Source of the DNA: Promethearchaeota archaeon
GTDB taxonomy: Archaea; Asgardarchaeota; Lokiarchaeia; Sigyniarchaeales; SOKP01
Direction: 5' to 3'
DNA: 16,124 bases
NCBI GenBank assembly: GCA_016839705.1
Contig: JAEOTR010000085.1
Span: 1 to 16,124, forward strand
The translations under genes were made by a program, and so were the position numbers. Under the pieces are notes generated by a model. The model made no database searches. It was not told the DNA's origin and saw only the letters and a program-made list of their open reading frames with translations. Position 1 is the first letter of the stretch. Every line of letters starts with the position of its first letter. Positions 1 to 16,124 of the stretch are shown piece after piece.

Positions 1-2
1 AA

Positions 3-440: not shown

Positions 441-517
441 TTTGCTTTTAAAAGCCTTTATACAATTTCAAATCTTCATTTGGAGAAAACAGTGTAAGTA
501 ACGAAGGATTGATTGTT

Positions 518-1222
518 TTAACTCAAAAATATTTCTTTTATAAAAACTTCAAGAAAAGGAAAATCCTTTGTCTCAATAACTTGACCTGTGTTATAATATA
601 CATCGAGAATTTTTCTTATAGGATCGTTTTCTTGGAGTTTCTCAGCAAATCTAGATAATTTTTGCTGAGCTTGATAGGATTGTCCCTTAAATACATAGCA
701 AATTATGAAATTAGAAACTGATTTCATAAGTACCGTAAACTCACCAAATCTAGCTCTATCAAGTTCCCGAGAGAAAAATTCATTGCTAAACGATGTAAAA
801 GCTGATAAGAAATTTCCGAAAATATCATTGTTACTTTTCCATTCTTCAGTAAAAGGATATGAAAACATCAAAGCACCGCCCTCTGTTATTATTAGGAGTA
901 CAAGTGGATCTTCATTAATGAGTTCCGGAATGTCAATTTGCTTTTTTTCTTGTATCCGATCTATGGTTTCATCTAACGATGCTAAATCTATTCGCTCTGA
1001 TATTGTTGCTTTTCTTCTTTTTAAATCTTCCCACTCATTAAATTGTTCTAATAATTTATCATGTTCACTTGAAATTTGATATGCTAATAACTGAAGTCCG
1101 TGAGGTTCAGCAATCTGTTGAGCCTTAGTTAAATATAGTCTTGCATCTCCTAAATTCATTCTTAATAAAGAAACTTTTCCTTGCAATAGATATGCTTGAG
1201 CTTGGAGTGAATAAGAATTCAT
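518..1222 (-). CDS. TPR-like helical segment plus C-terminal longin-like domain; probably the 5'-truncated remnant of a longer Asgard TPR protein
   Basis: AQAYLLQGKVSLLRMNLGDARLYLTKAQQIAE is a TPR-like helix pair. The C-terminal PLVLLIITEGGALMFSYPF...FLSAFTSFSNEFF...FGEFTVLM...IICYVFKG fits the beta-beta-alpha-beta-beta-beta-alpha longin pattern. An in-frame TAG lies 9 codons upstream of the ATG. Confidence 0.65.
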   Translation of the reverse strand: MNSYSLQAQAYLLQGKVSLLRMNLGDARLYLTKAQQIAEPHGLQLLAYQISSEHDKLLEQFNEWEDLKRRKATISERIDLASLDETIDRIQEKKQIDIPELINEDPLVLLIITEGGALMFSYPFTEEWKSNNDIFGNFLSAFTSFSNEFFSRELDRARFGEFTVLMKSVSNFIICYVFKGQSYQAQQKLSRFAEKLQENDPIRKILDVYYNTGQVIETKDFPFLEVFIKEIFLS

Positions 1223-1447
1223 TAGCTTTGCTGAAATCTTTACCCACTAAATTTTAGTAAGTTCAATTTTTTACTCGGTTTAAAGAAAACTAAGCTTAAA
1301 GTACCTAACAGAAACAAATCTACCTCTCAAAAAGTTGGAAAAATCTTTATTAACTATCGTGTTAAAATTACCCGAGACAAATATAACTTAAAAAATAATT
1401 ATAAATATGATCAAGATAATATAATTATTAAATTAAAATTTTGATAG

Positions 1448-1663
1448 GTGGTTACCATAAAACAAATATCAGACTTGTTGGAAACTGGTCTCTATGAGAC
1501 GTTCACTCCCGATCGAGAAATGTTGGTTGCTGATCTTCTAAAAGAATTGAACTTGGAAGATAAATATTTCGGTATCTTAGTCAATGGAAAGAAGGCAGAA
1601 CCTAATACAAAAATTAAGGAAACCGATGAAATAGTTATCTTACCTCACATTGCGGGAGGATAA
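1448..1663 (+). CDS. MoaD/ThiS family ubiquitin-like sulfur carrier (SAMP-like)
   Basis: 71 aa, GTG start, beta-grasp signature (VADLLKEL, ILVNG, DEIVILP) and C-terminal AGG followed by stop. Confidence 0.9.
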   Translation: MVTIKQISDLLETGLYETFTPDREMLVADLLKELNLEDKYFGILVNGKKAEPNTKIKETDEIVILPHIAGG

Positions 1664-1670
1664 TAACTAA

Positions 1671-1699
1671 CTTATTATTTTTTTATTCTCTTATTTTTT
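1671..1699 (+). terminator. T-rich archaeal-type terminator between the convergent ThiS-like gene and rnz
   Basis: cttattatttttttattctcttatttttt lies just after the ThiS-like stop codon. Confidence 0.4.
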
Positions 1700-1724
1700 A
1701 AGATCGATATCTACAATAATTAAA

Positions 1725-2711
1725 TTATTTTAGCTCAATTTTAAGTAGGTCTTCTGCTAAAATGGTGTTAGGAAAGATTTCTTTGGCTTCTTCAAGAAGT
1801 TTCAGAGCGTCCTCTTGATATCTAGTTGAAATGTGAGTAAGAATTAATTGTTTTGCATTCATTTCTTTGGCATCCATAGCAGCATCAGTAGAGGTTGAAT
1901 GTTTCTTTTCTTTCGCAATTTCCGCCAATTTTACGGCGAATGTTGCTTCATGAATCAAAATATCTGAGTTCTTACCTAAATCAATAAGGGACTTAGTTGG
2001 TCTTAAATCACCGGAATATGTTATTTTCCTTCCAGGTCTTTTTGGTCCGACAATTCCTTCTTTATTTGGATCTATTTCTTTTCCATTAAATTCAACCATT
2101 TGCCCTTCTTGCAATTTACTCCATAGATGACTCTCAGGAATAGCTAACTCTCTTACTCTTTCGGGATTAAATTTGCCAGGACGAGGTTTTTCGATAAATG
2201 AATAAGCATACGTAATAACAGAATGATCTACTAAAGCGAATTTCATTGAAAAGTATTTTGTATCAAAAATAATCTTATCCGTTATTTTACTCGTTGTTTT
2301 TGGGGTTTCTGATTCTAATCCTTCAAATTCAATTAATTCGCCAGTCGTATAATCAATTTCTACAATTTTGATGGGATATTTAGCTTTTAAGCCAAGAATT
2401 TTATAATGAGTGTAAAGATATAAAAATAGGTTTCTAGGTCCAAACACTGATAGTGGAGCAGTTCGTTCGTTTAAACTTAAGCGAAATAAAAATCCGGGAA
2501 GACCAATTATATGATCTCCATGGAAATGGCTAATAAAAATCATCAAGGGTTTATTAAATTTTAAACCAGCTTCAGCAAACCTACGTTGGAAGTCTTCTCC
2601 ACAATCAAATAATATGATTTGATTTCGATACCTGAGCGCAATTGAGGATAGATTACGTTCTCTTGTAGGTGTGGCTGCAGAGCTGCCCAAAATAATTAGG
2701 TCTAGACTCAT
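1725..2711 (-). CDS. rnz: Ribonuclease Z (tRNA 3' processing endonuclease)
   Basis: LGSSAATPTRERN, LFDCGE, SHFHGDH metal motif, exosite arm (PGKF...GPKRPGRK), YSGD, HEATF, HST and LTHISTRY. Confidence 0.95.
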   Translation of the reverse strand: MSLDLIILGSSAATPTRERNLSSIALRYRNQIILFDCGEDFQRRFAEAGLKFNKPLMIFISHFHGDHIIGLPGFLFRLSLNERTAPLSVFGPRNLFLYLYTHYKILGLKAKYPIKIVEIDYTTGELIEFEGLESETPKTTSKITDKIIFDTKYFSMKFALVDHSVITYAYSFIEKPRPGKFNPERVRELAIPESHLWSKLQEGQMVEFNGKEIDPNKEGIVGPKRPGRKITYSGDLRPTKSLIDLGKNSDILIHEATFAVKLAEIAKEKKHSTSTDAAMDAKEMNAKQLILTHISTRYQEDALKLLEEAKEIFPNTILAEDLLKIELK

Positions 2712-4024
2712 TTTTTTCGTAGTTGAGCAATTTCTAATCTTTGTTCAACATTTTGTTTTTCTAAATCTTGAACGATCCCTTTTAGTTCTCGCAGTCTTAA
2801 TGTTAAATGGGGATCTTCTTGAGGTTGAGGAGGAGCTCGAATAGTCTGTTCTTCGTATTGTTTTTGTATCTCATTAAGTTTTTGATCTCTTAATTTTAAT
2901 TGGTTTTCTAATTGCCTATACCTTTTTTTAATTTGCACTGCCTCATTCTTAATCGTTTCAATTTCTTCCTCTTTTGTTTTTAATTGTTTCTGCAAAAACA
3001 TTGCCAGTTCTCTTTGCATTTTTAAGTTCCCTTCTGATTCTTTCTGTGATTTACTTGTTCCAGGTGTGTCTCCACTTTTATATTTGTTTATTTGTTCTTG
3101 AAGTGATCTTACTTGTAATTTTGATTTATTTAATTGGTTTTGTAAATCTTCTTTTAGGGTTTTCATCACTCCTGATGACACAGCATCAGATTGCCCTGAA
3201 GTTACAGGAATTTCACCTTTGCTAGATCTTTTATTTTTCAGACTTTCCATTTCGCGATTTTTGGAATCTAATAGTTCTTCTAACTCTTTATTTCTCCCTT
3301 CCATTTTTTTTATTTCTTTGGTATCACTTTTTTTATCTGGTTTTTTAGATTTTTTAGAGAGTTTCTGTTTTAAATCGATTATTTCCATCTTAGACTTATT
3401 CAATTGGTTTTGCAGATCTTCTATTAAATCTTTAGCCATTGAATCACCACTTTCACTAGCAGAGGTAGTACTCAAATCTTTTATTTTCTGGTTTAGTCCA
3501 TTGATATCTGATTTATAAGTTTCGATAATACTTTCATAGTTCCTTACCTTTTCAATAGACTCTTCCGCTTGCTTAATAATAGCTTGTAATTGGGTTATTT
3601 CTGATTTTTGCTTATTCACTTTATCCTGTAATTCTTTTACCAAGGCATTTAGCGGTGGTTTTTCTCTCAAATCTTCTACTCTGATAACCGATGAGCTTTC
3701 TTGGCTTTTTTTAAGCTTCCCCAAATCTTGTTGGAACCGAACATTTTCTTTTCTTAGGAAACCCATTCTGTCTTTTAAATCTCTAATTTCCTCATCTTTT
3801 TCCCTAAGTCTGAGAGTCATCTTAGATTCAGCTGCCTGTCTCTTCTTACCTTTTTTTTTATCATCTGGAACAAGTTGCTCTAATTGCATAACCTGAGCTT
3901 CAAGTTGTTCAAGTTTGTAGAGATAATCGATGATTTCATTATCTTTTTCTGCTATTTCTCCCTCTAACTCTCTAGTTCTAGACTCTAGTTCTGTAATTCT
4001 GGTATTATGTGTCTCTTCTGACAT
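2708..4024 (-). CDS. Long coiled-coil hypothetical protein with an internal repeat
   Basis: 438 aa, rich in K/E/Q/L with heptad periodicity. No signal peptide, TM helix or ATPase motif is visible. Its TGA overlaps the rnz ATG (ATGA). Confidence 0.8.
   Translation of the reverse strand: MSEETHNTRITELESRTRELEGEIAEKDNEIIDYLYKLEQLEAQVMQLEQLVPDDKKKGKKRQAAESKMTLRLREKDEEIRDLKDRMGFLRKENVRFQQDLGKLKKSQESSSVIRVEDLREKPPLNALVKELQDKVNKQKSEITQLQAIIKQAEESIEKVRNYESIIETYKSDINGLNQKIKDLSTTSASESGDSMAKDLIEDLQNQLNKSKMEIIDLKQKLSKKSKKPDKKSDTKEIKKMEGRNKELEELLDSKNREMESLKNKRSSKGEIPVTSGQSDAVSSGVMKTLKEDLQNQLNKSKLQVRSLQEQINKYKSGDTPGTSKSQKESEGNLKMQRELAMFLQKQLKTKEEEIETIKNEAVQIKKRYRQLENQLKLRDQKLNEIQKQYEEQTIRAPPQPQEDPHLTLRLRELKGIVQDLEKQNVEQRLEIAQLRKK
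3119..3421 (-). repeat. Two-copy intragenic repeat encoding EDLQNQLNKSK (3389-3421 and 3119-3151)
   Basis: Identical 11-aa peptide at residues 202-212 and 292-302, 270 nt apart, differing only at synonymous sites. Confidence 0.85.
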
Positions 4025-4137
4025 AAGGAATAATCATCTAACTCTGGAAATTATGATATTAATAAATATATTGATTTTAAAATTTAACTCATTCTGTTTA
4101 TTATATATTTCCATATTTTTCAAGAAATCAGAAATTG

Positions 4138-6051
4138 TTAATAAATATCAAAATCTTTAATTGAAAATCGATTGATTTTTTTCATAATAGGAATGAGACT
4201 GAGAAAATTAAACAGTATAAATATTAAAAAGATAATAATGAATACTGTAAATGGAATATATAGTGGGGGTAAGTAAACACGACCAAAAATGATGATTGAA
4301 TTGAGTATCATGCCGATACTTAAACTTACTAGTAGTGAAGGAATAATAACAAAAAGGGATTCAAAAAAGAGAATTCTTTTCAATGATTTGTTCTTCGCAC
4401 CTACTGCCCGCATAATTAAGAAATCTCTTGCTTTTTCTATTATTCCGCCTTTTTGATAATTATATAATGATAAAACAGCAAGAACAGCAATTACTATAAT
4501 TAAAAACATCGGGTAAAGAGAAAGATTTGAGATGAAACTCAAATTTTTCTCGAAAGCACCGTCTAATCTAAGATGTGTAAAGTCATCTCCCAAAGTTGCC
4601 GAAATGTTGTTAAGTTCATCTTTTACCTCATTGTAAAAATCTGGTGTAAGCTTTAAGACCAGTAAATTGATTTCTTCATTCATAAGGTTTAACATTATTC
4701 GGGTTTCATTTATACTAGCATAACCAACCCATCCTGAGTAAAAGCTATCGATAACAACGCCACTAATATGGAATGAAGTTGCATAAGAACTAAGTTCTAA
4801 ACTCTGGTCTAAGGCGTAGTCGAATAAATTGTAAGCCAAACTATGACCTATCGTAATATTATCATAAGCATCCTCATTTGTGAAGAATTTTCCCTCTATT
4901 TCAAAATTTTGGATAATATTATCGGGATTTACTCCTATAATCGGGATAATTGCTTCTCTATTTTGTCCTACTTGTCTAAATTCTTCTATATCTTCAAAGA
5001 AGTGTATTCCTAGTTTTTCTTGGACTTCATAAAAACTAATTAATCTTTCATCAAATTCTTCGATCCCTTCAATATTCTTAATTTCATTGACATCGCTTAG
5101 GTTAAATAGATATTGTGATTCAGTAAAGTTAATTGCATTATTATCAATTAAGATCTCTGGATTTGAAAACATCTGATACATTAAAGAATAATTATAAATA
5201 ACCTCTTGATGCCCAAATATGATAATGTTATCACTTTGTGATCTATGAATCCACTCCTCTGATGATGTCTTTAAAACTATTGTCCCTAATCCTAAAGTAA
5301 AAATTATAAGGCAAATTAATGAAAATACAACAAGGTATCTCCGAAATTCACCCTTTCGTCTTAAAGTATTAATAATTGATATCTTGATATTAATACCGAA
5401 TGATGATAACCATTTTGGGATAAACTGAGTTTTTTTTGAAGCACTATAATCAACAGGAATATCTTTTGAAAATGATTTCATTATTGGTTCTCTCCCTATT
5501 TTTCTTAGGGTATATCCTGTTATGATATAAATGCTAAAAAAGCAAGAAACGAATAAGATTGGGGTAAAAACCATATCTATTTGAAACTTAATAGTTATAA
5601 AGAAACTATTCATTATTAAACTAAATATACCGAACGAGATTAGGCCAGTAATTAATCCAAGGAAGAAACCTATGAAAAATATTATATACACTTCGAGGAG
5701 ATAAAAACTATACAATCTGCGGGGTAAAGTACCTAAAGCTTTCATTATCCCAATATCTTTTTTTTTATTGATAATATGAGTGGTTGTAATTGTAACTACG
5801 ATGAAAACTGCTAAAATCAGAAATAAAATCTGTATAAATGTATTAAACTGTGTATAGACGACGTTAATACTTCCAGAGAAAAAAAACTCATTTGAAAAAG
5901 AAGTTTGGATAAAGATGTTTAAGCCTAAAGAGGAAGTAAAATATATTAGGAACTCTGTAATTGCTATTACAAAAGTAATAACAATTAAATAAGGATAGGT
6001 TTGGCCTTTTTTACGATAGAAATCTTTTAATGCAAAATCAAATGATGACAT
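4138..6051 (-). CDS. ABC transporter permease, FtsX/MacB (type VII) family
   Basis: Multiple TM segments, two FtsX-type motifs (KKKDIGIMKALG and KARDFLIMRAVGA) and a large extracytoplasmic domain in the second half. It lies directly downstream of an ABC ATPase. Confidence 0.88.
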   Translation of the reverse strand: MSSFDFALKDFYRKKGQTYPYLIVITFVIAITEFLIYFTSSLGLNIFIQTSFSNEFFFSGSINVVYTQFNTFIQILFLILAVFIVVTITTTHIINKKKDIGIMKALGTLPRRLYSFYLLEVYIIFFIGFFLGLITGLISFGIFSLIMNSFFITIKFQIDMVFTPILFVSCFFSIYIITGYTLRKIGREPIMKSFSKDIPVDYSASKKTQFIPKWLSSFGINIKISIINTLRRKGEFRRYLVVFSLICLIIFTLGLGTIVLKTSSEEWIHRSQSDNIIIFGHQEVIYNYSLMYQMFSNPEILIDNNAINFTESQYLFNLSDVNEIKNIEGIEEFDERLISFYEVQEKLGIHFFEDIEEFRQVGQNREAIIPIIGVNPDNIIQNFEIEGKFFTNEDAYDNITIGHSLAYNLFDYALDQSLELSSYATSFHISGVVIDSFYSGWVGYASINETRIMLNLMNEEINLLVLKLTPDFYNEVKDELNNISATLGDDFTHLRLDGAFEKNLSFISNLSLYPMFLIIVIAVLAVLSLYNYQKGGIIEKARDFLIMRAVGAKNKSLKRILFFESLFVIIPSLLVSLSIGMILNSIIIFGRVYLPPLYIPFTVFIIIFLIFILFNFLSLIPIMKKINRFSIKDFDIY

Positions 6052-6074
6052 ATGCTAATTTTTAGATTTTTTTT

Positions 6075-6833
6075 TTAATTTAGATCTCTTTCTTGTTCAA
6101 TAATATTACCTTGATCAAATAAGATGACTTTATCTGCAAGTGCTATTAAATCATCATCGTGAGTTACAACTATAATTGTTTTTTCTCCATTTTTTAATTC
6201 ATTAAAAAGATCTCTTATGAATTGACTGGATTTTTTATCCAGATTTGCAGTAGGTTCATCAGCTAAAATCACGGGGGGATCATTAGATAAGGCTCTAGCA
6301 ATAGCTACTCTTTGCTGTTCACCCGCAGATAATTGGAAAGGTAAATGTTCCCTCCTATCACCAAGTCTCATTTCTTTTAACAATTTGACCGCTCGGTTCC
6401 TTTGTTCTTCAAGTTTCATACCTGAGAGATTCATAGGGAACATTACATTTTCTTCAGCTGTAAGAGTGCTAATCAAATTATAATTTTGAAAAATAAATCC
6501 TGAATTCATCAAACGGAATAAAGTTAACGATTCTTGGTCCATATCAGAAATTTTTACTCCTTGATTGTATATTATCCCAGAATTGGGAGAATCTAAACCC
6601 CCTAATAAATTTAATAAGCTGGTCTTTCCAGCGCCACTCGGTCCTTTAATAACAATGAATTCACCAAATTTTACATTTAATGAAACCCCATCCACAGCTT
6701 TTACAATAAAATCTCCAATTTCATAATTTTTAACGAGATCTTTTCCAATTATTATCAAATCTGTCTTAGTTAACTCCTCTGCCAAATTATTTTCATTTGG
6801 ATCTTTAAATTCTACTAATGTATCGTCCTTCAT
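6075..6833 (-). CDS. ABC transporter ATP-binding protein, LolD/MacB-like
   Basis: Walker A GPSGAGKT, Q-loop FIFQNYNL, signature LSAGEQQ, Walker B ILADEPT and H-loop VTHD. Confidence 0.95.
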   Translation of the reverse strand: MKDDTLVEFKDPNENNLAEELTKTDLIIIGKDLVKNYEIGDFIVKAVDGVSLNVKFGEFIVIKGPSGAGKTSLLNLLGGLDSPNSGIIYNQGVKISDMDQESLTLFRLMNSGFIFQNYNLISTLTAEENVMFPMNLSGMKLEEQRNRAVKLLKEMRLGDRREHLPFQLSAGEQQRVAIARALSNDPPVILADEPTANLDKKSSQFIRDLFNELKNGEKTIIVVTHDDDLIALADKVILFDQGNIIEQERDLN

Positions 6834-7200
6834 TTCTTATTTATATCCCGTTTCTATAACTTGTAAGATTAGATTCGAATATGCTAAAATTTAGATTATT
6901 ATGCTCAAAGGTTTTACGATGATTGCGTTTATTCTAAAATTTGATGTAAAGAATTAATATTGTATTTTTATAATTTATGTTTAAATTTAAAATAAATTTA
7001 AATATTAAGGTGTCATATTAATATTTCGAGGGAAGATCGAGAAAATTCTAAAATATCCCCTAATTTCCTAATTAAAATGGTAAGTAACTAAATTTAAACC
7101 AAAGTCTTAAACTTCCTTTTTAAGATTTTGTATTTTTCTCCTCTCCCTCACTCTCCTTTCGTAATTTAAGCTCCTATTAAGTGTAGAATCCACATTATCT

Positions 7201-7217
7201 AAAAAACAAAATTTATA
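7201..7217 (+). promoter_or_regulatory. Candidate BRE/TATA for the corrinoid protein gene
   Basis: An A-rich run followed by TTTATA (7212-7217), about 65 nt before the ATG. The AT-rich context makes this uncertain. Confidence 0.3.
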
Positions 7218-7283
7218 GGATTAATTTAATTTACTACCAAATATAATTATTACAAATTTTTAATAATATTTGCGTAGATTTTT

Positions 7284-7919
7284 ATGGATTTTGAAAAATT
7301 AACTGAGTTAATAATCGAATTAGAGGTTGATGACATATCTGATGCAGTAAAAGAAGCATTAGATGAGGGTAAAGAACCTTTTGATGTATTAAATGCCTTA
7401 ACGAAGGGAATGGATGAAGTGGGGAGAAGATATGAAACAAAAGAATATTATCTCACTGAACTGGTTTTAGCAGGAGAAACAATGAAGGAAGCGTTTACGA
7501 TTTTAAAGCCTGCTTTAGCAGCAACAGATACGTCTACAGATAGAGTAAAAATAATTCTAGGTACTGTGAAAGGAGATAATCATGATATAGGAAAAAATAT
7601 TCTTGGTTCGCTCTTATTAAGCTCTGGTTTCGAATTGCTCGATCTAGGGATGGATGTAGATGAAAATACAATAGTAGAAACGGTTAAAGAAACTGGTGCC
7701 TCTATCGTAGCGTTAAGTTCATTGCTTACAATGACCGTCGAACAAATTAAAGTTGTCCACGAGGCTTTAATAGCAGCAGGTATTCGAGATAAGGTCAAAT
7801 TAATTGTTGGTGGTGCGCCCTTAAATGAAGAACTCGCGAAAAAACTAGGTGCAGATGATTTTGCTGATGATGCTGTTGATGGAGTTAAACATATTAAAAA
7901 GTTAGCGGGAAAAAATTAA
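7284..7919 (+). CDS. Corrinoid (cobalamin-binding) protein of methyltransferase systems, MtbC/MttC/MtaC-like
   Basis: N-terminal helical cap (ALTKGMDEVGRRYE...YYLTELVLAGETM) followed by the B12-binding Rossmann domain with GTVKGDNHDIGKNI (DxHxxG), SSLLT and VGGAP. Confidence 0.93.
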   Translation: MDFEKLTELIIELEVDDISDAVKEALDEGKEPFDVLNALTKGMDEVGRRYETKEYYLTELVLAGETMKEAFTILKPALAATDTSTDRVKIILGTVKGDNHDIGKNILGSLLLSSGFELLDLGMDVDENTIVETVKETGASIVALSSLLTMTVEQIKVVHEALIAAGIRDKVKLIVGGAPLNEELAKKLGADDFADDAVDGVKHIKKLAGKN

Positions 7920-8027
7920 TGTCTCGATAATTTATTTTTGATCTATTTTAATTACCATCTTACTTTTTTTAAGTTGCTTTTTTAAGATATTTATATTTTA
8001 AAAGATCATTATTTTAACTACTTTATC

Positions 8028-8055
8028 TCAATTTGAAGATTAATATTGAAATTGA
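8028..8055. promoter_or_regulatory. 28-bp imperfect palindrome, candidate operator upstream of tusA-iscS-iscU
   Basis: TCAATTTGAAGATTAATATTGAAATTGA has 12 of 14 symmetric pairs and lies about 20 bp upstream of TTTATA at 8075-8080. Confidence 0.45.
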
Positions 8056-8141
8056 TTAAAATATAATGAGAACATTTATACCTATTCGTAATCGTTTAGA
8101 TCCCAAGAACCAATAAAATAAAACAAACTATATAAGATTAA

Positions 8142-8411
8142 ATGGAGGATAAAAATATGTCTGATAATGAAAGCAATGAGCTTAAATATGATGAAGAATT
8201 AGACACTCGGGGGTTGTACTGCCCAGAACCTTTATTTGAAGTTAGGAATTTAAGTGAAAATCTTGAAATTGGGCAATGTTTTAAAGTACTCGCAGATGAT
8301 CCGGCAGCTGAAGAAGATCTTAAACGATGGGCTAAGAGAACAGAAACTAAACTAGTAGAATTTCAAAAAGATGGTGAGGATTTAATCTTTTATTTTCAAA
8401 AAGTTAAATAA
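8142..8411 (+). CDS. tusA: Sulfurtransferase TusA/SirA family protein
   Basis: LDTRGLYCPEP (CPxP motif) and VLADDPAAEEDLKRWA. GGAGG at 8144-8148 suggests the true start is the in-frame ATG at 8157. Confidence 0.92.
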   Translation: MEDKNMSDNESNELKYDEELDTRGLYCPEPLFEVRNLSENLEIGQCFKVLADDPAAEEDLKRWAKRTETKLVEFQKDGEDLIFYFQKVK

Positions 8412-8426
8412 TCGAGGTTATTCAAT

Positions 8427-9620
8427 ATGAGTATATATTTAGACTATCAAGCAGCCAAACCGGTTGATGTTCGAGTTATATCAGAGATGACGGTATATTT
8501 AAACAATAAATTCGCCAATCCTTCTTCCCTCCATTGTGATGGAGATGAAGCTACAGATACATTAAGCGATTACCGACGTAAAGTTGCAGATTTCATAAAT
8601 GCTCCAGAACCTGCTTCTATAATATTTACATCTGGGGCAACCGAATCAAATAATTTAGCGATAATTGGAGGTGCAATGCGAATCAAGAAGAAAGGGAATC
8701 ATATAATAATTTCAGAAATCGAACACATTTCAATTTTAAATATAGCAAAATATTTAGAAAGACAGGGATTTGAAGTTAGTAGAGTTCCTGTAGATCAGTT
8801 TGGAATTGTAAGACTTGATAAACTTGAACGCTTAATTACCAATAAAACTATTTTAATTTCTATCTCTACTGCGAGTAATGAAGTGGGATCTATTCAACCT
8901 ATAAAAGAAATTAGCGATATTGCAGTTAAAAATAAGATTCTTTTCCACACTGACGCTGTTGCTAGTGAAAGCATTATCCCATTTGATGTCCAAAAGATCC
9001 CGGTCGATATGTTAACTCTGTCTTCAAATGATATATACGGACCCAGAGGTGTTGGAGCTTTATATCTGAAAAAAGGTGTAAGAGTGAATCCGATCATAAT
9101 TGGGGGCGGTCAGGAAAAGGGGATGAGATCTGGTTCTGAAAACATTCCAGGTATAGTAGGATTTGGCAAAGCTGCTGAGATTATGAAGTCAGAAATAGAT
9201 GATGAATCAGTCAGGTTAAAACTTTTAAGAGATAAATTAATCAAAGGAATCTTAGAAACCATTCCAAAATCCTATTTAAATGGTCATCCAGAAAAGAGAC
9301 TTCCGCATAATGCCCATTTTAGATTTGATTACATTGAAGGTGAATCGCTAATTCTGAGTCTGAAAGATGAGAAAATAGCGGCAGCCACAGGTTCAGCATG
9401 TTCTTCTAAAACGTTAGAACCATCCCATACTTTAATTGCAATGGGGTTACTACATGAAGAGGCCCATGGCTCGCTTATGATTACTTTAGGAAGAGATACA
9501 AAAGAAGAAGATGTAAATGAGTTATTGGAAAAATTACCAAATATTGTAAAAAGATTAAGATTATTATCTCCACTAACTCCTCCAGATTTAATAAAAAAGT
9601 ATAATGAGGTGAATGAATAA
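8427..9620 (+). CDS. iscS: IscS/NifS-family (group I) cysteine-desulfurase-like protein with Asp in place of the PLP lysine
   Basis: NPSSLH, FTSGATESNN, EHISI, GGGQE, RSGSEN and the catalytic loop TGSACSS (Cys325) are present. SSNDIYGP replaces the canonical SxHKxYGP. SD-like GAGGT at 8414-8418. Confidence 0.93.
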   Translation: MSIYLDYQAAKPVDVRVISEMTVYLNNKFANPSSLHCDGDEATDTLSDYRRKVADFINAPEPASIIFTSGATESNNLAIIGGAMRIKKKGNHIIISEIEHISILNIAKYLERQGFEVSRVPVDQFGIVRLDKLERLITNKTILISISTASNEVGSIQPIKEISDIAVKNKILFHTDAVASESIIPFDVQKIPVDMLTLSSNDIYGPRGVGALYLKKGVRVNPIIIGGGQEKGMRSGSENIPGIVGFGKAAEIMKSEIDDESVRLKLLRDKLIKGILETIPKSYLNGHPEKRLPHNAHFRFDYIEGESLILSLKDEKIAAATGSACSSKTLEPSHTLIAMGLLHEEAHGSLMITLGRDTKEEDVNELLEKLPNIVKRLRLLSPLTPPDLIKKYNEVNE

Positions 9621-10425
9621 TATGAGTGATATGAAATCAACCCAATATTCAGAAAAAGTATTAGAGCATTTTCGAAATCCTAGAAATGTAGGGGTAATAG
9701 AAAAAGCTGATGGTTATGGAAAGGTTGGAAATCCTGTTTGTGGCGATTTAATGGAAATATTCATCAAAGTGGAAAAAGATAAAGCAGGTGATGACATAAT
9801 TGACGATGTGAAATTTAGAACTTTCGGTTGTGGTTCAGCCGTAGCAACTTCGTCAATGGTAACAACAATGGCTAAAGGCATGAAAGTTGATGATGCTTAT
9901 GAAATTACTCGAAGTGATGTTGCTGAAGAATTGGATGGATTACCCCCAATAAAGATGCATTGTTCTAATTTAGCCGCTGACGCGTTAAAAGCAGCAATAG
10001 ATAATTATCGAGGTAAGGAAGACTCATATGTTGAAGTAGAGCATAAAGCATGTGCGGCGACAGAAGTACAAGTGATTCTAGGTATTGATGAATTTCTCGG
10101 TAAAGGTGTTTACAAGAAAGTTGATGATTTAACGGAGTTTGATAACAAAAGAGTTTTAATATTAGATACAGGAGATCAATCTTTAGAATTAGCTTTAGAA
10201 TTAACAAATCATACCGGAAGAGTTATATTAGTAACATCTGCAAAATACACGCCAGGTTCTGAAGAATTAAAAAAGAAGCTCAAAATGTCTGATGTAAAGA
10301 TTTTGCATCAATCTGAGTTATTAGAAATTCAGGGAACTGATGATGTGGAGAAGACGATTATACACGATACTGATGAGAATGAAAATTATGAGCTCTTTAT
10401 CGACGTTGTAATAATTCTTGAATAG
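9613..10425 (+). CDS. iscU: IscU/NifU-N Fe-S scaffold fused to a C-terminal degenerate thioredoxin-reductase-like (NADPH-domain) module
   Basis: YSEKVLEHFRNPRNVG, GNPVCGD, FGCGSA and LPPIKMHCSNLA give all three scaffold Cys, followed by about 120 extra aa. GAGGTG at 9606-9611 favours the ATG at 9622 as the start. Confidence 0.9.
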   Translation: MNNMSDMKSTQYSEKVLEHFRNPRNVGVIEKADGYGKVGNPVCGDLMEIFIKVEKDKAGDDIIDDVKFRTFGCGSAVATSSMVTTMAKGMKVDDAYEITRSDVAEELDGLPPIKMHCSNLAADALKAAIDNYRGKEDSYVEVEHKACAATEVQVILGIDEFLGKGVYKKVDDLTEFDNKRVLILDTGDQSLELALELTNHTGRVILVTSAKYTPGSEELKKKLKMSDVKILHQSELLEIQGTDDVEKTIIHDTDENENYELFIDVVIILE

Positions 10426-10447
10426 ATTTAATTAATAATTTTTCTCT

Positions 10448-11581
10448 CTATTTTTTCATAGATTCTAATATGTAGTCAGTTATATATTTACTATCTTTAT
10501 ATGTTTGATTCTTATAATTCACATATCTAAAATTAAAAACACATAGAGGACAGGACGAGATTAAAACTTTTGTTTCTATTTTATTGAATAATTCTTTTCC
10601 AATTTTAATACAAATACTACTATCAACACCTCTAATTCCAGATCCTGCTCCACAACAAGGACCTTCACTAGGGGTAACTGCTAGTTCATTTATCTTCAAA
10701 CCACATTTTTTTAGTAGTATTCTAGGCTCAGAGAAAAGAGGACCATTTTTGTATTTCCTCCCAAGTCGACATGGATCATGATAAGTAATTGTTCTATTCA
10801 AGGGTTTTAGGTTGATTTTACCTTCTCCTTCTAGTTCATAAACAATGTCAATTATATGTTTCACAGTTAAATCATAATCCTTAAAGTATTTCCGATAAAC
10901 TTTATCGAAAGCATATAAACAACCCCCGCAAGTTACTAACAAATTCTTTACACCAATTTTCTTAAATAACTCAATGTTTTCTTTAAAGATTTTTTTTGCA
11001 ATATCAACGTTTCCTGCTGAATAGATATATTCCCCACAACAGGGTTCATTTTCTAAAATCTTAAAATTATAGCCTGCAAGCTTTAATATCTCATATGGCG
11101 CACTCGCACTTTCTCTAACTCGAAATGATGACATGCAGCCAAAAAAAAGTAACGTATCAGAGTTTTTCTTTTCAAAGATTTCTTCCTTTTTATATTTTTC
11201 AAGTAACCAATCTAACCGTTCATCTGGGTTTCCTCCAACTGAATTGTCTTTTTCAACTATTCCCTTAATAATTTTTTTGTGATTCTCTAATGGGCCTTTA
11301 TTTTCTTCAACTATTTTAATTTTTGAAGAATGAATAATATCTGCTATTGGTATAGATTGTTGACATACTAAATTACAGGATGCGCACAAAGTACACGTAT
11401 AAATGCCTAGAAGCTCTTCATTATTTATCTCTTGATTATTAAATATCTTTTCCGCAATCTTTAATCTCCCATTTGGAGATTTATATTCTTCTTCAGTGAC
11501 TTTATAGGTGTCACAAACCTCTAAGCATGTTTTACAATCCAAACAAGATTGTATGTAATTTAAAATCTCTTTTTCATTCAT
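10448..11581 (-). CDS. Fe-S oxidoreductase, HdrD/GlcF/GlpC-like: two 4Fe-4S motifs plus two CCG domains
   Basis: CLDCKTCLEVC and CTLCASCNLVC; FFGC...EPCCG...TCGGC; YHDPC...PCCGAGSG...SCPLC. Confidence 0.9.
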   Translation of the reverse strand: MNEKEILNYIQSCLDCKTCLEVCDTYKVTEEEYKSPNGRLKIAEKIFNNQEINNEELLGIYTCTLCASCNLVCQQSIPIADIIHSSKIKIVEENKGPLENHKKIIKGIVEKDNSVGGNPDERLDWLLEKYKKEEIFEKKNSDTLLFFGCMSSFRVRESASAPYEILKLAGYNFKILENEPCCGEYIYSAGNVDIAKKIFKENIELFKKIGVKNLLVTCGGCLYAFDKVYRKYFKDYDLTVKHIIDIVYELEGEGKINLKPLNRTITYHDPCRLGRKYKNGPLFSEPRILLKKCGLKINELAVTPSEGPCCGAGSGIRGVDSSICIKIGKELFNKIETKVLISSCPLCVFNFRYVNYKNQTYKDSKYITDYILESMKK

Positions 11582-11630
11582 TATTTTAGCTCTAGTTTTA
11601 AGATATAATACTTTTTTACTATATAATAAG

Positions 11631-11648
11631 ATAATAATCTATTATTAT
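11631..11648. promoter_or_regulatory. Perfect 8-2-8 inverted repeat in the divergent promoter region
   Basis: ATAATAAT-CT-ATTATTAT, just downstream of TATATAA (11620-11626). The arms contain only A and T. Confidence 0.3.
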
Positions 11649-11692
11649 AGTTTAATATCATCGAAAAAAATAAAGGAAATCAACGATTTGCT

Positions 11693-12247
11693 TTGATTAT
11701 GAGGAATAAATTAGTCTCAGATAAAACATTAAAAGCTTATATAGATCGCTATGAAAAATTGCATAAACATCGAGATACTGATGAAGGAAACAGATTATTT
11801 GTATCAAAAGTAACTGCGGTTTCAGAACAAATAGATAATTTGCATGTTAAAGCAACAGTTGGGAATTTTGTTATAGAAAATGACGGACCAAAAGATTTAG
11901 GAGGATCTGGTAACGTTCCGGGACCAATGCCGATGCTTCTAGCAAGTCTTGCAAATTGTTTAGAAATAACAGCTTTGCTCTATCTATCAGTGTCGAATGT
12001 GAAGGTGAATTCTATTAGTGTAAAAGTAGAAGCAAAGCACGACAAAAGAAGTGCGCTTAATCCTAAAAATGAGCCATTTCCTGGTTTTTTTGATATCAAA
12101 TATATGTGGTACATTGAGACGGACGAAAATTTAAAAAAGGTCGATAACCTTCTCAAAAAAGTTGAAGAAATATGTCCTGTGAAAGGAACTTGCAGTAAAC
12201 ATCATGAGTTCCCGAGAGAAATTCATTTAGTCGAAAAAAGTTTATAG
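11693..12247 (+). CDS. OsmC/Ohr family protein
   Basis: DGPKDLGGSGNVPGP...LLASLANC and EEICPV carry the two conserved Cys. The ATG at 11699 is the likely start. Confidence 0.88.
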   Translation: MIMRNKLVSDKTLKAYIDRYEKLHKHRDTDEGNRLFVSKVTAVSEQIDNLHVKATVGNFVIENDGPKDLGGSGNVPGPMPMLLASLANCLEITALLYLSVSNVKVNSISVKVEAKHDKRSALNPKNEPFPGFFDIKYMWYIETDENLKKVDNLLKKVEEICPVKGTCSKHHEFPREIHLVEKSL

Positions 12248-12328
12248 ATAACTTTAAATCGATTTGTAAGTGTTGTAGTATAGAAATTAGTTAAAAATGG
12301 TATTTAAACAAAAATTTAGGTAAAAAAA

Positions 12329-14716
12329 ATGGAACGTGTAATAATTGTAGGTGGAGTCGCTGGTGGGGCAAGCGCAGCAGCAAGACTTCGTCGCTTAAAA
12401 GAAGATTATGAAATCATTATGCTTGATAAAGGTCCTTATGTTAGTTTTGCAAACTGTGGGCTCCCTTATTACATTGGAAATATAATAAAGGATCGTGAGT
12501 CTTTAGAACTCGTGACTCCAGAAAGGTTTCTTGAAAGGTTCAATATTGATGTAAGGGTAATTAATGAGGTAACATCAATAGATAAAGAGAAAAGGAACGT
12601 TAAAGTCAGAGATTTAAGTAAAAATAAAGAATATACTCTCGAATATGATTCCTTAATCTTAGCAACTGGATCAAAACCTATAGTTCCACCCTTCCAAGGC
12701 CTTGATCAAGTCCCATATTTTACTGTGTGGACAATTCCAGATGCTGTAAAAATAAGGGAATATGTTGAAAAATATCATATCAAAAATGCCGTTATTGTTG
12801 GTGGAGGATTTATTGGCTTAGAGATGGTAGAAAACTTAGCAGAGAAAGGTGTTAGAGTAAAAATCGTTGAAATGTTAGATCAGGTTATACCCCCTATGGA
12901 TAAAGAAATGGCGCAGTTTATTCATCAAGAATTAATTTTGAATGGAGTATGCCTTGTTTTAAAAGATCCAGTTGATTCCTTTGGAAGTTCTGACGACGAT
13001 AAACCATATATTAAAACTAAAAGTGGGAGAATAATCGAAACAGATTTAATTATTTTATCCATAGGGATTAAACCTCAAAGTGAATTAGCAAAAAATACCG
13101 GTTTAGAAATATCAGAAAGAGGATATGTGGTAGTAAATAAAAGAATGCAAACATCTGATCCAAATATCTATGCTGTGGGAGATGTTGTTCAAGTTCAACA
13201 TTTTCAAACTCAAAAACCGATCTCAATGGCTTTAGCAGGTCCTGCAAATAAACAAGGAAGAATAGCGGCAGAAAATATTGCTGGGAGAAATTCAGAATAT
13301 AAAGGTGTTTTAGGAGCGTCTGTTGTTAAAATTTTTGACATGACCGTTGCAATGGTAGGTTTAACAGAAAAACAGTTACAAAATCTAGATATCGAATATG
13401 ATAAGATATATATCCATCCAAATAATCATGCAGGGTATTATCCTGGGGCCGTTCCTATGGCACTCAAACTGATATTTGAAATTCCTTCGGGGAAAGTTTT
13501 AGGGGCTCAAATAGTAGGTGGTGCTGGGAGTGAAAAAAGAGTGGATGTATTATCAACAATTATAAAAATGGGGGGAACTGTCTTCGACTTAGAAGAATTA
13601 GAATTAACCTATGCACCACCTTATGGTTCCGCAAAAGACCCTGTAAATATGGCTGGATTTGTTGCAGCGAATTATCTTAGAAAGGACATGCCTATTTGGC
13701 ATTGGCATGATTTTAGTAATATCGCAAAAAACGGGGGAATATTATTAGATGTCAGAACTAAAGAAGAATTTGCTGCAAGAACTATTGAAGGTTCAATAAA
13801 TATACCAATTGAAGAATTGAGAACCCGACTAAATGAAATTCCTTTCGATAAACCAATTTTTGCCTACTGTGAAGTAGGATATCGGAGTTATTTAGCATTA
13901 AGAATTCTTTTACAAAGTGGTTTTAATGAAGCGTATGAATTGACTGGAGGATTTAAACTTTTTGAGATGGCAAACGCTACCACAGAAGAAATTATGGCGG
14001 CATGCGGAGGATCCGAAAATGTTATCGAAGAATTTGTTCATGAAAAAGCTACTAAAACTGATGATTATATAGAAGTTGATGCTAGTGGGGTTTCATGCCC
14101 GGGACCATTGAATGCCTTAATTAAAGGGCTTGAAACATTACCAGAAAATAAGAAATTAAAAATATATGCAACAGACCCAGGATTTAAATCTAGTGTTGAG
14201 GCATATTCTAAATTGAATGAAACTGTAAAATTGTTATATCTTGGAAAAGAAAAAGGGATGCTAGTTGCGATTTTAGAAAAAGGTGAACATATTGTAGAAA
14301 CTGTAACACTTGTTAAAAAGAAAACTAGAAAGGAATTAAGGTCTCCTGACGCACCTCCAATTTCAGATATTAGTGTTGATGAGTTATATGAACGCCTTGA
14401 TACTGAAGATGAACCACCACTTTTAATAGATGTACGAACGCCACAAGAATATAATGGTCCCGCAGGTCATATTAAGAATACTAAATTGATTCCATTAGGA
14501 GAGCTTTTAAATAATACAGATGATATACAAAAATATAAAAATGATGAAATCGTCTCTATTTGCCACTCTGGTTCACGTTCTATGATGGCAGCCCAAATAT
14601 TAGCACGAGCAGGATTCAAAGATGTCAGAAACTTAACAGGTGGAATGATGATGTGGCATAGAAAAGGCTATCCTTTTAAATCAGAAGAATCGAGAATGAA
14701 AGGAACTTCTTATTGA
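12329..14716 (+). CDS. cdr: CoA-disulfide/persulfide reductase fused to rhodanese, TusA and a second rhodanese domain
   Basis: FAD motif GGVAGG, SFANC (Cys43), NAD(H) motif GGGFIG...VE, YAVGD and YAPPY. RHD1 has DVRT...YCEVGYRS (Cys514), the TusA domain has DASGVSCPGP (Cys590), and RHD2 has DVRTPQEY...ICHSGSRS (Cys745)...GGMMMW. Confidence 0.92.
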   Translation: MERVIIVGGVAGGASAAARLRRLKEDYEIIMLDKGPYVSFANCGLPYYIGNIIKDRESLELVTPERFLERFNIDVRVINEVTSIDKEKRNVKVRDLSKNKEYTLEYDSLILATGSKPIVPPFQGLDQVPYFTVWTIPDAVKIREYVEKYHIKNAVIVGGGFIGLEMVENLAEKGVRVKIVEMLDQVIPPMDKEMAQFIHQELILNGVCLVLKDPVDSFGSSDDDKPYIKTKSGRIIETDLIILSIGIKPQSELAKNTGLEISERGYVVVNKRMQTSDPNIYAVGDVVQVQHFQTQKPISMALAGPANKQGRIAAENIAGRNSEYKGVLGASVVKIFDMTVAMVGLTEKQLQNLDIEYDKIYIHPNNHAGYYPGAVPMALKLIFEIPSGKVLGAQIVGGAGSEKRVDVLSTIIKMGGTVFDLEELELTYAPPYGSAKDPVNMAGFVAANYLRKDMPIWHWHDFSNIAKNGGILLDVRTKEEFAARTIEGSINIPIEELRTRLNEIPFDKPIFAYCEVGYRSYLALRILLQSGFNEAYELTGGFKLFEMANATTEEIMAACGGSENVIEEFVHEKATKTDDYIEVDASGVSCPGPLNALIKGLETLPENKKLKIYATDPGFKSSVEAYSKLNETVKLLYLGKEKGMLVAILEKGEHIVETVTLVKKKTRKELRSPDAPPISDISVDELYERLDTEDEPPLLIDVRTPQEYNGPAGHIKNTKLIPLGELLNNTDDIQKYKNDEIVSICHSGSRSMMAAQILARAGFKDVRNLTGGMMMWHRKGYPFKSEESRMKGTSY

Positions 14717-14771
14717 TCTTATCTATTCTATTTCTCCTTTTAATTCATAAGTATAAACATTAAAATTTAGG

Positions 14772-14787
14772 GGAAATACTTATAAAT
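14772..14787 (+). promoter_or_regulatory. Candidate BRE/TATA for rubrerythrin
   Basis: GGAAATAC followed by TTATAAAT, about 55 nt before the ATG. SD-like GAGGT at 14831-14835. Confidence 0.4.
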
Positions 14788-14842
14788 CCAAGTACATTCA
14801 AAAATATCGAAAATTCAAATTAATAAAAAAGAGGTAAAAAGT

Positions 14843-15433
14843 ATGAAAGAAACAGCTAAAAAATTATTCACTGCCTTCGTTGGCGAATCACAGGCGAGAA
14901 ATCGCTATACACTATTTTCAAAAGTCGCTAAAAAAGAAGGGCTTGTATTAGTGTCTGAGATATTCCTTGAAACCGCAGATCAAGAAAGAGAACACGGAGG
15001 TTGGTTCTATCGGATGTTACAAGAGTTAAAAAATAAAGATCCCTTTGATGAGATGAAAGTACTCCCAGATGCAAGTTTTCCAACAACCCATGGAACTACA
15101 GTTGAAAATTTAAAGTCTGCCATTGCGGGTGAAGATATGGAATGGCAAACATTGTATCCCGATATAGCTAAGACTGCAGAAAAGGAAGGTTATAATGATA
15201 TTGCTGCAAGAGTGCACGCTATTATGGTTGCTGAAAAACATCATTCTGAGAGATACGGTAAACTCTTAAAATTGGTAGGTGATGATGCTTTTTTCAAACG
15301 TGGAGAGAAGGTTGTATGGGTATGTATGGAATGCGGGTATGAAGTAGAAATGAAAGAATTACCTAAAGACTTTAAATGTCCCTCATGTGACCATCCTAGA
15401 TCCTACTATAGAAAGAAATCTGAAGAATTCTAA
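14843..15433 (+). CDS. rbr: Rubrerythrin
   Basis: Di-iron motifs AFVGESQARNRY, QEREH, AIAGE and AEKHH, plus a C-terminal rubredoxin-like domain CMECG...CPSCDH. Confidence 0.95.
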   Translation: MKETAKKLFTAFVGESQARNRYTLFSKVAKKEGLVLVSEIFLETADQEREHGGWFYRMLQELKNKDPFDEMKVLPDASFPTTHGTTVENLKSAIAGEDMEWQTLYPDIAKTAEKEGYNDIAARVHAIMVAEKHHSERYGKLLKLVGDDAFFKRGEKVVWVCMECGYEVEMKELPKDFKCPSCDHPRSYYRKKSEEF

Positions 15434-15437
15434 AAAC

Positions 15438-15460
15438 TTTTTTTATTTTATCTTTTTATT
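15438..15460 (+). terminator. T-rich terminator after rubrerythrin
   Basis: tttttttattttatctttttatt begins a few nt after the stop codon. Confidence 0.45.
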
Positions 15461-15638
15461 AATACGGTAAAATCAAGATGTAATGGTAATCCTTACTTTT
15501 TAACAAATTTAATATTTCTGTAAGTTCCATTTTGTTCGCCCAGATAATTAAGTACTTTTCGAAATATTGGTCTACTTATTATTAATATATTTGATCAATT
15601 TTGTCAGTATTATAAAATTATCTTTAAATTGATTTATT

Positions 15639-16124
15639 ATGATAAGTGAAAATAAAAACATAATAAATGAAAAACCGAAACTCAACATAAACTATGCAAA
15701 TAATAAGAAAAATCTTACCATTTTCTTTATTCTCAGTTTTGTCTTGATAATATTAACTGTAATTATCCAAATTGGGGTTAGAAATCTTATAGATAATTAT
15801 TTTGTAGACATGTTTTTTGCAATTTTAGCTATAACTACGCCAACTATTTCAGCTGTTATTATATCAGGTTTAAACGATGGGTGGCAAGGGATTAAGAATC
15901 TTTTTGCCGGATTTCGAATATGGAAAGTAAATTTTCTTTGGTATTTTGCAGGATTATTATTTATTATTGCTCCTTTGATTTTTGCTCTTATTTATCTTCT
16001 TTTTGGAGGTCAAGCCCCAGGAGCAGCACCAACTTATACATTACCAATATTTCTTCTAGATTTGTTTATATCATTAATAACTGGGCCTTTAAACGAAGAA
16101 GCTGGTTGGCGTGGATATGCATTA
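15639..16124 (+). CDS. CPBP (CAAX type II / Abi) family intramembrane metalloprotease, runs off the window end
   Basis: Not in the ORF track because it has no stop in the window. Manual translation from ATG 15639 gives MISENKNIINEKPKL..., several TM segments, PTISA, WKVNFLWY and the terminal GPLNEEAGWRGYAL, which is the EExxxR motif 1. Confidence 0.88.
   Translation, partial: MISENKNIINEKPKLNINYANNKKNLTIFFILSFVLIILTVIIQIGVRNLIDNYFVDMFFAILAITTPTISAVIISGLNDGWQGIKNLFAGFRIWKVNFLWYFAGLLFIIAPLIFALIYLLFGGQAPGAAPTYTLPIFLLDLFISLITGPLNEEAGWRGYAL

Follow-up and report, generated by a model that had tools for sequence, protein, structure and literature searches.

An IscU scaffold protein of Lokiarchaeia and Thorarchaeia carrying a stripped reductase-domain remnant

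What is a piece of a thioredoxin reductase (TrxR) doing at the C terminus of an iron–sulfur (Fe–S) cluster scaffold? The question is raised by a stretch of 16,124 nucleotides from a Promethearchaeota archaeon (GCA_016839705.1, contig JAEOTR010000085.1, positions 1–16,124), referred to here in its entirety as the window, in which a single open reading frame (ORF) encodes an IscU scaffold followed by a domain resembling the NADPH domain of TrxR. An earlier reading of the window, made from the DNA letters and without database searches (the sequence-only reading), had proposed that this domain has been catalytically stripped and repurposed for a non-catalytic task. The C-terminal domain (C-domain) is shown here to have no FAD-binding domain and is most probably a pseudo-enzyme remnant, and it is held under strong purifying selection, being neither an artefact nor in decay. 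The protein as a whole is most likely, as far as its sequence can tell, the stripped descendant of a family of full-length IscU–flavoprotein fusions.

The fusion protein and its C-terminal remnant

The fusion gene and its parts are as follows.

9613–10425, plus strand: fusion ORF (IscU plus reductase-domain remnant), 270 amino acids, with alternative starts at 9622 and 9631
9643–10020, plus strand: IscU scaffold domain, residues 11–136 (identified with NifU_N, TIGR03419 and Foldseek)
10021–10068, plus strand: disordered linker, residues 137–152 (pLDDT below 50 for residues 136–152), with the Cys147 codon at 10051–10053
10069–10422, plus strand: stripped NAD(P)H-domain remnant of a TrxR-fold flavoprotein, residues 153–270 (identified with TIGR01292, the PDB and Foldseek)
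10165–10182, plus strand: degenerate dinucleotide-binding loop D185-T-G-D-Q-S190, in place of GxGxxA (GGGDSA)
10363–10404, plus strand: conserved acidic β-hairpin H251-D-x-D-E-x-E-x-Y-E-L-x-x-D264

The ORF thus comprises a complete archaeal IscU, a disordered linker of ~17 residues and a C-domain of ~118 residues. Its start is ambiguous between the ATG codons at 9613, 9622 and 9631. A Shine–Dalgarno-like GAGGTGA at 9606–9612 abuts the first of these and is better spaced for the other two, and the majority of fusion homologues begin with MKSTQY, at the residue equivalent to 9631. The stop codon of the preceding IscS gene (9618–9620) overlaps or abuts the start of the fusion, which suggests translational coupling.

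The N-terminal half can be assigned as a bona fide IscU/MisU scaffold of the MIS/ISC type (MIS being the archaeal minimal IscS–IscU system) with all of its cluster ligands. Pfam NifU_N (PF01592) covered residues 11–136 with an E value of 3e-47, and TIGR03419 scored 194.4 bits, above its cut-off of 187.9. The ligands C43, D45, C73, H116 and C117 were invariant among 127 homologue sequences, and Foldseek aligned the domain with the archaeal IscU structures 7c8m and 7cnv (67–69% identity) and with Archaeoglobus fulgidus IscU (4eb5_C, 63%).

For the C-domain, residues 155–268 matched positions 117–232 of the 300 positions of TIGR01292 (thioredoxin-disulfide reductase), which correspond to the NADPH domain, with an E value of 1e-12, in agreement with the earlier assignment of the tail to a TrxR-type NADPH-domain-like module. 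The score of 45–47 bits lies far under the family cut-off of 343, so the C-domain is not an enzyme of this family. A phmmer search of the PDB gave 2zbw as the best match (E 8e-9), followed by 5xhu and 3lzw, a set made up of TrxR-type ferredoxin–NADP+ reductases (FNRs) and TrxRs. An AlphaFold model of the fusion built with 43 homologues (mean pLDDT 82.8) contained two well-folded domains separated by a disordered stretch at residues 136–152, with pLDDT values of 85–90 within the C-domain. Foldseek, which the sequence-only reading had named as a check, placed this domain on the NADPH domains of TrxR and FNR structures (2zbw_B, E 1.8e-12; 3f8r, 5xhu and 6gas, root mean square deviations of 1.4–1.5 Å over 110–118 columns). 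Matches in the ESM Atlas were to generic Pyr_redox clusters only.

Alignment bore out the degeneration of both nucleotide-binding motifs as originally read: the glycine-rich loop has become DTGDQS, and the HRR motif for the 2'-phosphate has become TSAK. The FAD domain had also been correctly called missing, as its residues are absent both before and after the C-domain according to Pfam, TIGRFAM and alignment with a full-length fusion (see below), and TIGR01292 was matched over the NADPH-domain positions only. The claim that the CxxC is gone stood in part. No CxxC is present in the C-domain, the aligned position reading 'GVYKKVDD', but its loss could not be upheld: the nearest relatives, namely the TrxR-type FNRs and the full-length IscU fusions, are also without it, so the immediate ancestor probably never had one.

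Across the 127 sequences, Gly never occurs at position 185, where GxGxxA has its first Gly, and Asp is found there in 120. In divergent members the loop reads DRGEKS, DKGVAS, EFDQKS, YKDNKS, EHGERS or HRSDES, the residues following strand 2 (including the HRR position) are also variable across the stripped family, and the helix equivalent to that of the CxxC is poorly conserved. Variability of this kind in the loop and after strand 2 is unlike the behaviour of a conserved nucleotide site, and the C-domain is almost certainly unable to bind NAD(P)H. The alternative of a remnant that retains a non-canonical form of nucleotide sensing or binding, for NAD(P)H, ADP or a similar molecule, and thereby couples Fe–S assembly to the redox or energy state, could draw on a Rossmann β-α-β core that is predicted with high confidence and on the conservation of G187 and the next helix within Lokiarchaeia. 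We consider it improbable, given a carboxylate at the place of the pyrophosphate and the freedom with which the whole loop and the post-strand-2 residues vary in divergent members.

The acidic β-hairpin, part of the C-terminal β-meander, has been kept while the nucleotide loop decayed. Its residues D252, D254, E255, E257, Y259 and D264 are each conserved in 120–127 of the 127 sequences, and H251 in 104. The strongly acidic character noted earlier for the tail was also evident from composition, the stripped domain having a median net charge of −9 and a pI of 4.7, compared with −2 and 5.45 for standalone NAD(P)H domains. Cys147, which lies in the linker (HKACAA) and had been singled out in the sequence-only reading as a possible extra ligand or persulfide site, proved to be conserved, with a Cys in 125 of the 127 full-length homologues.

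To the question of how widely this protein occurs, database searches gave a clear answer. More than 120 protein clusters of ~265 amino acids matched the window fusion over its full length at 69–92% identity, those with named members belonging to Lokiarchaeota/Promethearchaeota. Among 400 Asgard genomes searched at E ≤ 1e-8, 224 encoded the C-terminal module, these being Lokiarchaeia and Thorarchaeia (114 of 134 genomes in the family of the window and 73 of 89 in the group to which Thorarchaeota belongs), and the open frames carrying it were 255–300 amino acids long. A search of 1.84 billion representative proteins with the module returned only 33 matches at E ≤ 1e-10. Nearly all of the matches inspected whole were the same fusion or its 5'-cut gene calls starting 'MHCSNLAADAL'; one further match (P0145) was a fragment of the full-length fusion type.

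Nei–Gojobori estimates of the ratio of nonsynonymous to synonymous substitution rates (dN/dS) within the family were 0.07 for the IscU domain, 0.19 for the linker, which is the fastest-evolving part of the fusion, and 0.12 for the C-domain, values that are weakened by a dS near saturation in many pairs and by the non-independence of pairs. Closer sequence pairs yielded the same ratio, and 18 positions of the C-domain were invariant in an alignment of 43 sequences. The structural match, the presence in hundreds of genomes and a C-domain dN/dS of ~0.12 run counter to both outcomes that the sequence-only reading had set against its own proposal, namely the lack of a TrxR structural match, or a fusion unique to this assembly with neutral decay. 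With conservation and purifying selection in a domain devoid of cofactor motifs, a repurposed non-catalytic domain is the best reading.

Full-length fusions and the origin of the stripped form

The best match to the module outside the stripped form lay inside a 448-amino acid ORF (locus L045, positions 700–2043) from another Asgard family. One protein from that contig carries the name Candidatus Freyarchaeum deiterrae, and close homologues carry the name Jordarchaeaceae. The L045 protein consists of an IscU (NifU_N, residues 5–127) and a complete Pyr_redox_2 domain (profile positions 1–291 of 291, E 3e-44), with an FAD GxGxxG motif, an intact NAD(P)H loop 'GNGDQA' and a 'GIYAAGD' motif, and without CxxC. 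More than 100 clusters with this architecture of ~444 amino acids were found, at 81–94% identity in Jordarchaeaceae and at 49–58% in Methanoperedens, other Methanosarcinales, Methanosarcinaceae and ANME-2, under the database labels 'NifU', 'IscU 2' or 'thioredoxin reductase'. The flavoprotein half matched low-Mr TrxRs end to end (phmmer E 5e-43; Foldseek E ~1e-32, with a TM score of 0.87 to 5mh4), and the AlphaFold model of the full-length fusion (pLDDT 85) gave a TrxR match over ~310 columns.

As both FAD halves, GxGxxG and GxGxxA are retained, the full-length fusions are plausibly active flavoenzymes; as they have no CxxC, they are unlikely to be thioredoxin reductases. We hypothesize that NAD(P)H-derived electrons may pass through their FAD straight to the scaffold, which would serve a purpose analogous to that of ferredoxin in ISC or of the flavin on SufBC2D. 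A flavin on SufBC2D was reportedly described by Wollers in 2010.

The L045 ORF is unbroken in the DNA (G117:C1, at ~2,004,000). The NCBI-sourced protein from the same contig, P0261, is the oxidoreductase part only (326 amino acids; 100% identity, 73% coverage), and the same holds for P0262 and P0263, so public annotation hides the fusion in some genomes.

The low-Mr TrxRs also suggest a different use for the C-domain in Lokiarchaeia and Thorarchaeia. In these enzymes the NADPH domain bears the CxxC and is, by textbook knowledge, the thioredoxin-binding domain, so that the remnant might reuse this surface as a docking platform for thioredoxin, PDO or a glutaredoxin-like partner. This is quite unlikely: the closest relatives, the full-length fusions, are themselves doubtful thioredoxin reductases for want of a CxxC, the helix corresponding to the CxxC region shows little conservation among the stripped forms, and no Trx or TrxB gene was present in the conserved gene cluster at the 19 loci examined.

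The relationship between the two kinds of fusion was apparent from direct comparison. BLASTP of the window protein with the L045 fusion aligned IscU to IscU (61% identity, E 1e-58) and window residues 164–268 to L045 residues 269–374 (38% identity, E 6e-18), so that the window protein corresponds to the full-length fusion minus both halves of the FAD domain. All fused forms, stripped and full-length, have the EDE hairpin and no CxxC, and the hairpin is missing from standalone TrxR and FNR proteins. In a tree of the IscU domain (62 rows), the fused proteins were separated from the 30 closest unfused IscUs by a single branch with an ultrafast bootstrap (UFBoot) support of 99 and an SH-aLRT of 96; the split was recovered in 97% of bootstrap trees, with the window IscU on the fused side. 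In addition, Thor-type stripped forms ('..PACVIGQDEF') have their linker Cys at the position of a hinge Cys ('..LACGIPGENEF') present in three of four Jord-type full-length proteins.

Further evidence came from the two genes that precede the fusion.

8142–8411, plus strand: TusA-family sulfur carrier, with which the conserved cluster begins (Pfam TusA, E 6.6e-19)
8427–9620, plus strand: IscS/MisS homologue of A. fulgidus type that has Asp in place of the lysine for pyridoxal phosphate (PLP) ('SSND') and keeps the loop Cys ('GSAC')

The best PDB match of the window IscS was A. fulgidus IscS2 (4eb5_A, E 7e-136), which has the identical SSND motif. An IscS gene lies directly upstream of the fusion in the window, at seven of the eight other stripped-form loci and at all 11 full-length-fusion loci. 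Both SSND and GSAC were found in every one of 18 fusion-adjacent IscS proteins (the window, six other stripped, one Jordarchaeial and 10 Methanoperedens loci). TusA precedes IscS at seven of eight distant stripped-form loci and at the Jordarchaeial full-length locus L051; at one stripped-form locus, L038, neither IscS nor TusA stands beside the fusion.

The EDE hairpin, the missing CxxC, the placement on the fused-side branch, the K-to-D IscS and the hinge-Cys match are what point to the Loki/Thor protein as the stripped descendant of a full-length fusion. An inserted domain is much more easily left behind by deletion of the FAD halves than captured, and we read the direction accordingly as from full-length to stripped. 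The ancestor would have consisted of IscU, an FAD domain and an NAD(P)H domain without CxxC; on the way to Lokiarchaeia and Thorarchaeia the two halves of the FAD domain would have been deleted, and decay of the pyrophosphate loop and of the 2'-phosphate motif would have followed.

Several observations weigh against this descent. The trees of the IscU and NAD domains are unrooted, and the unfused IscUs were picked by similarity to the window. In the NAD-domain tree, built on 119 columns, the stripped domains grouped together (support 100) on a stem as long as 0.83, and the full-length fused domains formed a clade of their own (support 96), with the union of the two supported at 31 only. Furthermore, the window IscU domain is closer to unfused IscUs (70–78% identity) than to the Jord fused IscU (61%). 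The low support for the union and the nearness to some unfused IscUs would both be accommodated if the stripped and full-length fusions were independent, each arising by convergent capture of a TrxR-like gene beside iscU, in which case the Loki/Thor form was never a flavoprotein. We give this very little credence, as clean capture of the inserted NAD(P)H domain alone is much less likely than FAD-half deletion, and as the common EDE hairpin, the lack of CxxC, the K-to-D IscS, the hinge-Cys correspondence and the 99/96 branch all speak against it.

On common descent, the two forms can be treated as one undescribed lineage of IscU–TrxR-fold fusions, defined here by the hairpin, the lack of CxxC, the K-to-D IscS, the fused-side position of the IscU domain and a complete flavoprotein moiety. 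The window protein has the first four of these features and, with its FAD domain absent, not the fifth. It is accordingly classed, by these sequence features, as a reduced derivative of the lineage and not as a typical member.

The gene cluster and other Fe–S genes of the genome

PMC7585200, with reference to Marinoni 2012, Yamanaka 2013 and Pagnier 2014, reports that IscS of the A. fulgidus type is without cysteine desulfurase activity and that it gives a Cys ligand to the [2Fe-2S] cluster on IscU. Two further IscS paralogues are encoded in the genome of the window. Both keep the AHK lysine of canonical IscS, and one is located ~3 kb from a tandem pair of unfused IscU genes. With canonical AHK IscS and unfused IscUs elsewhere in the genome, the fused IscU belongs to a second, specialised TusA–IscS(K-to-D)–IscU module.

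The tandem standalone IscU paralogues lie at G000:C85:74238-75136 (locus L002, 1501–2408). In the first of them, an inserted loop contains an in-frame TGA right before the first ligand Cys ('GNEI[TGA]KNLTQYPTCGD'), which could signify selenocysteine, a pseudogene or a truncated product of 94 amino acids made from a downstream ATG.

No match to the SufB/D core (PF01458) was obtained in the genome of the window, which is 93% complete. A divergent SufB/D homologue of ~325 amino acids was found in 45 of 55 genomes of the same family (E ~1e-14 to 1e-17), and the missing core is probably an assembly gap; it is not taken as a sign that the fusion operon is the sole Fe–S system of the organism. A partner supplying only the FAD domain in trans was also considered and rejected, as the genome search gave complete TrxR-like flavoproteins only.

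Other genes near the cluster were recorded. On the plus strand at 12329–14716, the window encodes a 795-amino acid protein in which a CoA-disulfide-reductase-like flavoprotein is joined to a rhodanese, a TusA and a second rhodanese. This fusion adjoins the TusA–IscS–IscU cluster in two genomes of the same family (L042 and L043), and it is followed by a rubrerythrin in the window and in L043. On the minus strand at 10448–11581, convergent with the fusion gene, is an HdrD-like protein (two CCG domains and a 4Fe-4S dicluster domain), a gene that was not beside the cluster in the other loci examined. Directly upstream of TusA, at 7284–7919 on the plus strand, a 211-amino acid protein with a B12-binding domain is encoded; this arrangement with TusA recurs in L042 and L043, and in L039 the gene is nearby.

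Proposed role and comparison with known systems

PMC13066941 describes the archaeal MIS as working without an electron donor, a chaperone or a partner for iron handling, and as the Fe–S biogenesis system that has been studied least. Taken as a whole, the explanation that best fits the window protein, and which we hold to be fairly probable, is that a stripped flavoprotein descendant has been kept as a non-catalytic, tethered accessory of IscS–IscU. The conserved asset would not be redox chemistry but the acidic β-hairpin surface, a legacy of the full-length enzymes, along with the mobile thiol of the linker. The tethered C-domain might dock on the IscS–IscU complex, or it might bind Fe2+ through the His, Asp and Glu residues of the hairpin. 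Cys147 might extend to the assembly site and act there as an additional ligand or as a sulfur relay, for example by replacing the loop Cys of IscS when the complex dissociates.

Such a role for the C-domain in docking or metal handling, with a tethered thiol, is an inference, and some observations tell against it. AlphaFold gave no confident packing of the C-domain against IscU in the window fusion (pTM 0.57) and no fixed packing of the flavoprotein on IscU in the full-length fusion (pTM 0.59); with disordered tethers in both forms, a fixed contact between IscU and the added domain thus receives no support. Finally, the linker Cys is absent from the divergent members P0121, P0123, P0127, P0128, P0133 and L044, so it is not essential to every member.

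The same lack of predicted inter-domain contact and the same Cys-less members would be expected if the C-domain had a purely structural role in solubility, oligomerisation or scaffold stability and the linker Cys were incidental. Pseudo-enzyme domains are often kept for stability, which lends this explanation some general plausibility. We nevertheless judge it unlikely, since the best-conserved part of the domain is not the core but a surface-loop acidic hairpin held in common with the full-length enzymes, and since the Cys has persisted in nearly all homologues despite lying in the fastest-evolving segment.

The tethered accessory can be combined with the proposed activity of the full-length enzymes in a broader scenario, which we put forward only tentatively. 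In it, certain archaea would possess undescribed 'self-reducing' scaffolds, in which IscU is joined to a complete flavoprotein that delivers NAD(P)H electrons to the nascent cluster or to bound sulfur, with a PLP-less IscS acting as a ligand donor only. In Lokiarchaeia and Thorarchaeia these would have been stripped to an in-cis effector resembling frataxin or occupying a ferredoxin-like site, with possible functions in IscS docking, iron handling and takeover of the fourth ligand. If true, this would supply the accessory factors that the 'minimal' MIS lacks, and would do so in the archaea most closely related to eukaryotes.

The literature searched, which did not cover Garcia et al. 2022 (MIS/SMS), contained no account of the stripped fusion or of its full-length counterpart. 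What is new is therefore a relic-reductase IscU in Lokiarchaeia and Thorarchaeia and a previously unremarked family of full-length fusions, an architecture concealed in hundreds of database entries labelled just 'NifU' or 'thioredoxin reductase'. The accessory domain of the former and the full fusions of Jordarchaeia, Methanoperedens and ANME-2, the last two being methane-oxidising, are concrete candidates for the functions missing from MIS. They also constitute a natural experiment, in which a plausibly active enzyme and a stripped pseudo-enzyme can be compared alongside the same unusual PLP-less IscS.

Of the known and newly found systems, the full-length fusions are the nearest, resembling the window protein in IscU lineage (99/96), NAD domain (38% identity), EDE hairpin, lack of CxxC and K-to-D IscS; they retain the FAD halves, GxGxxG and GxGxxA, all of which the window protein has lost. 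The TrxRs of TIGR01292 and the TrxR-type FNRs (2zbw, YumC 3lzw and 5xhu) agree with the window protein in NAD(P)H-domain fold and sequence, and in its no-CxxC state the window domain resembles the FNR branch. Beyond the absence of CxxC, however, it has neither the FAD domain nor the NADPH motifs of a TrxR-type FNR, and the C-terminal half is related to TrxR and TrxR-type FNR by fold and descent only.

NifU proper (IscU, a ferredoxin-like [2Fe-2S] domain and Nfu) has a homologous N-terminal domain and is likewise a scaffold with redox or cluster-handling additions, whereas the domain added in the window protein is of an unrelated fold and has no cluster-binding cysteines. In line with the earlier view that this is not the classic NifU architecture, TIGR02000 (NifU proper) scored 148.8 bits against a cut-off of 273.3 and matched over profile positions 3–125, the N-terminal domain only. 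With frataxin/CyaY and IscX, the window protein may be compared by analogy only, in that an acidic surface is attached to the IscS–IscU machinery; no Pfam match to frataxin or IscX was found in it, and its Rossmann fold, which matches TrxR and FNR, implies no kinship with them in sequence or fold. The closest known counterpart of the gene pair is the IscS–IscU of A. fulgidus (MIS/MisSU; 4eb5 and 4eb7), with 63% identity in IscU, the same SSND motif and loop Cys, and the same order of IscS and IscU. The A. fulgidus IscU is a single-domain protein, whereas that of the window adds a linker Cys and a 118-residue Rossmann remnant, with TusA placed before the pair.

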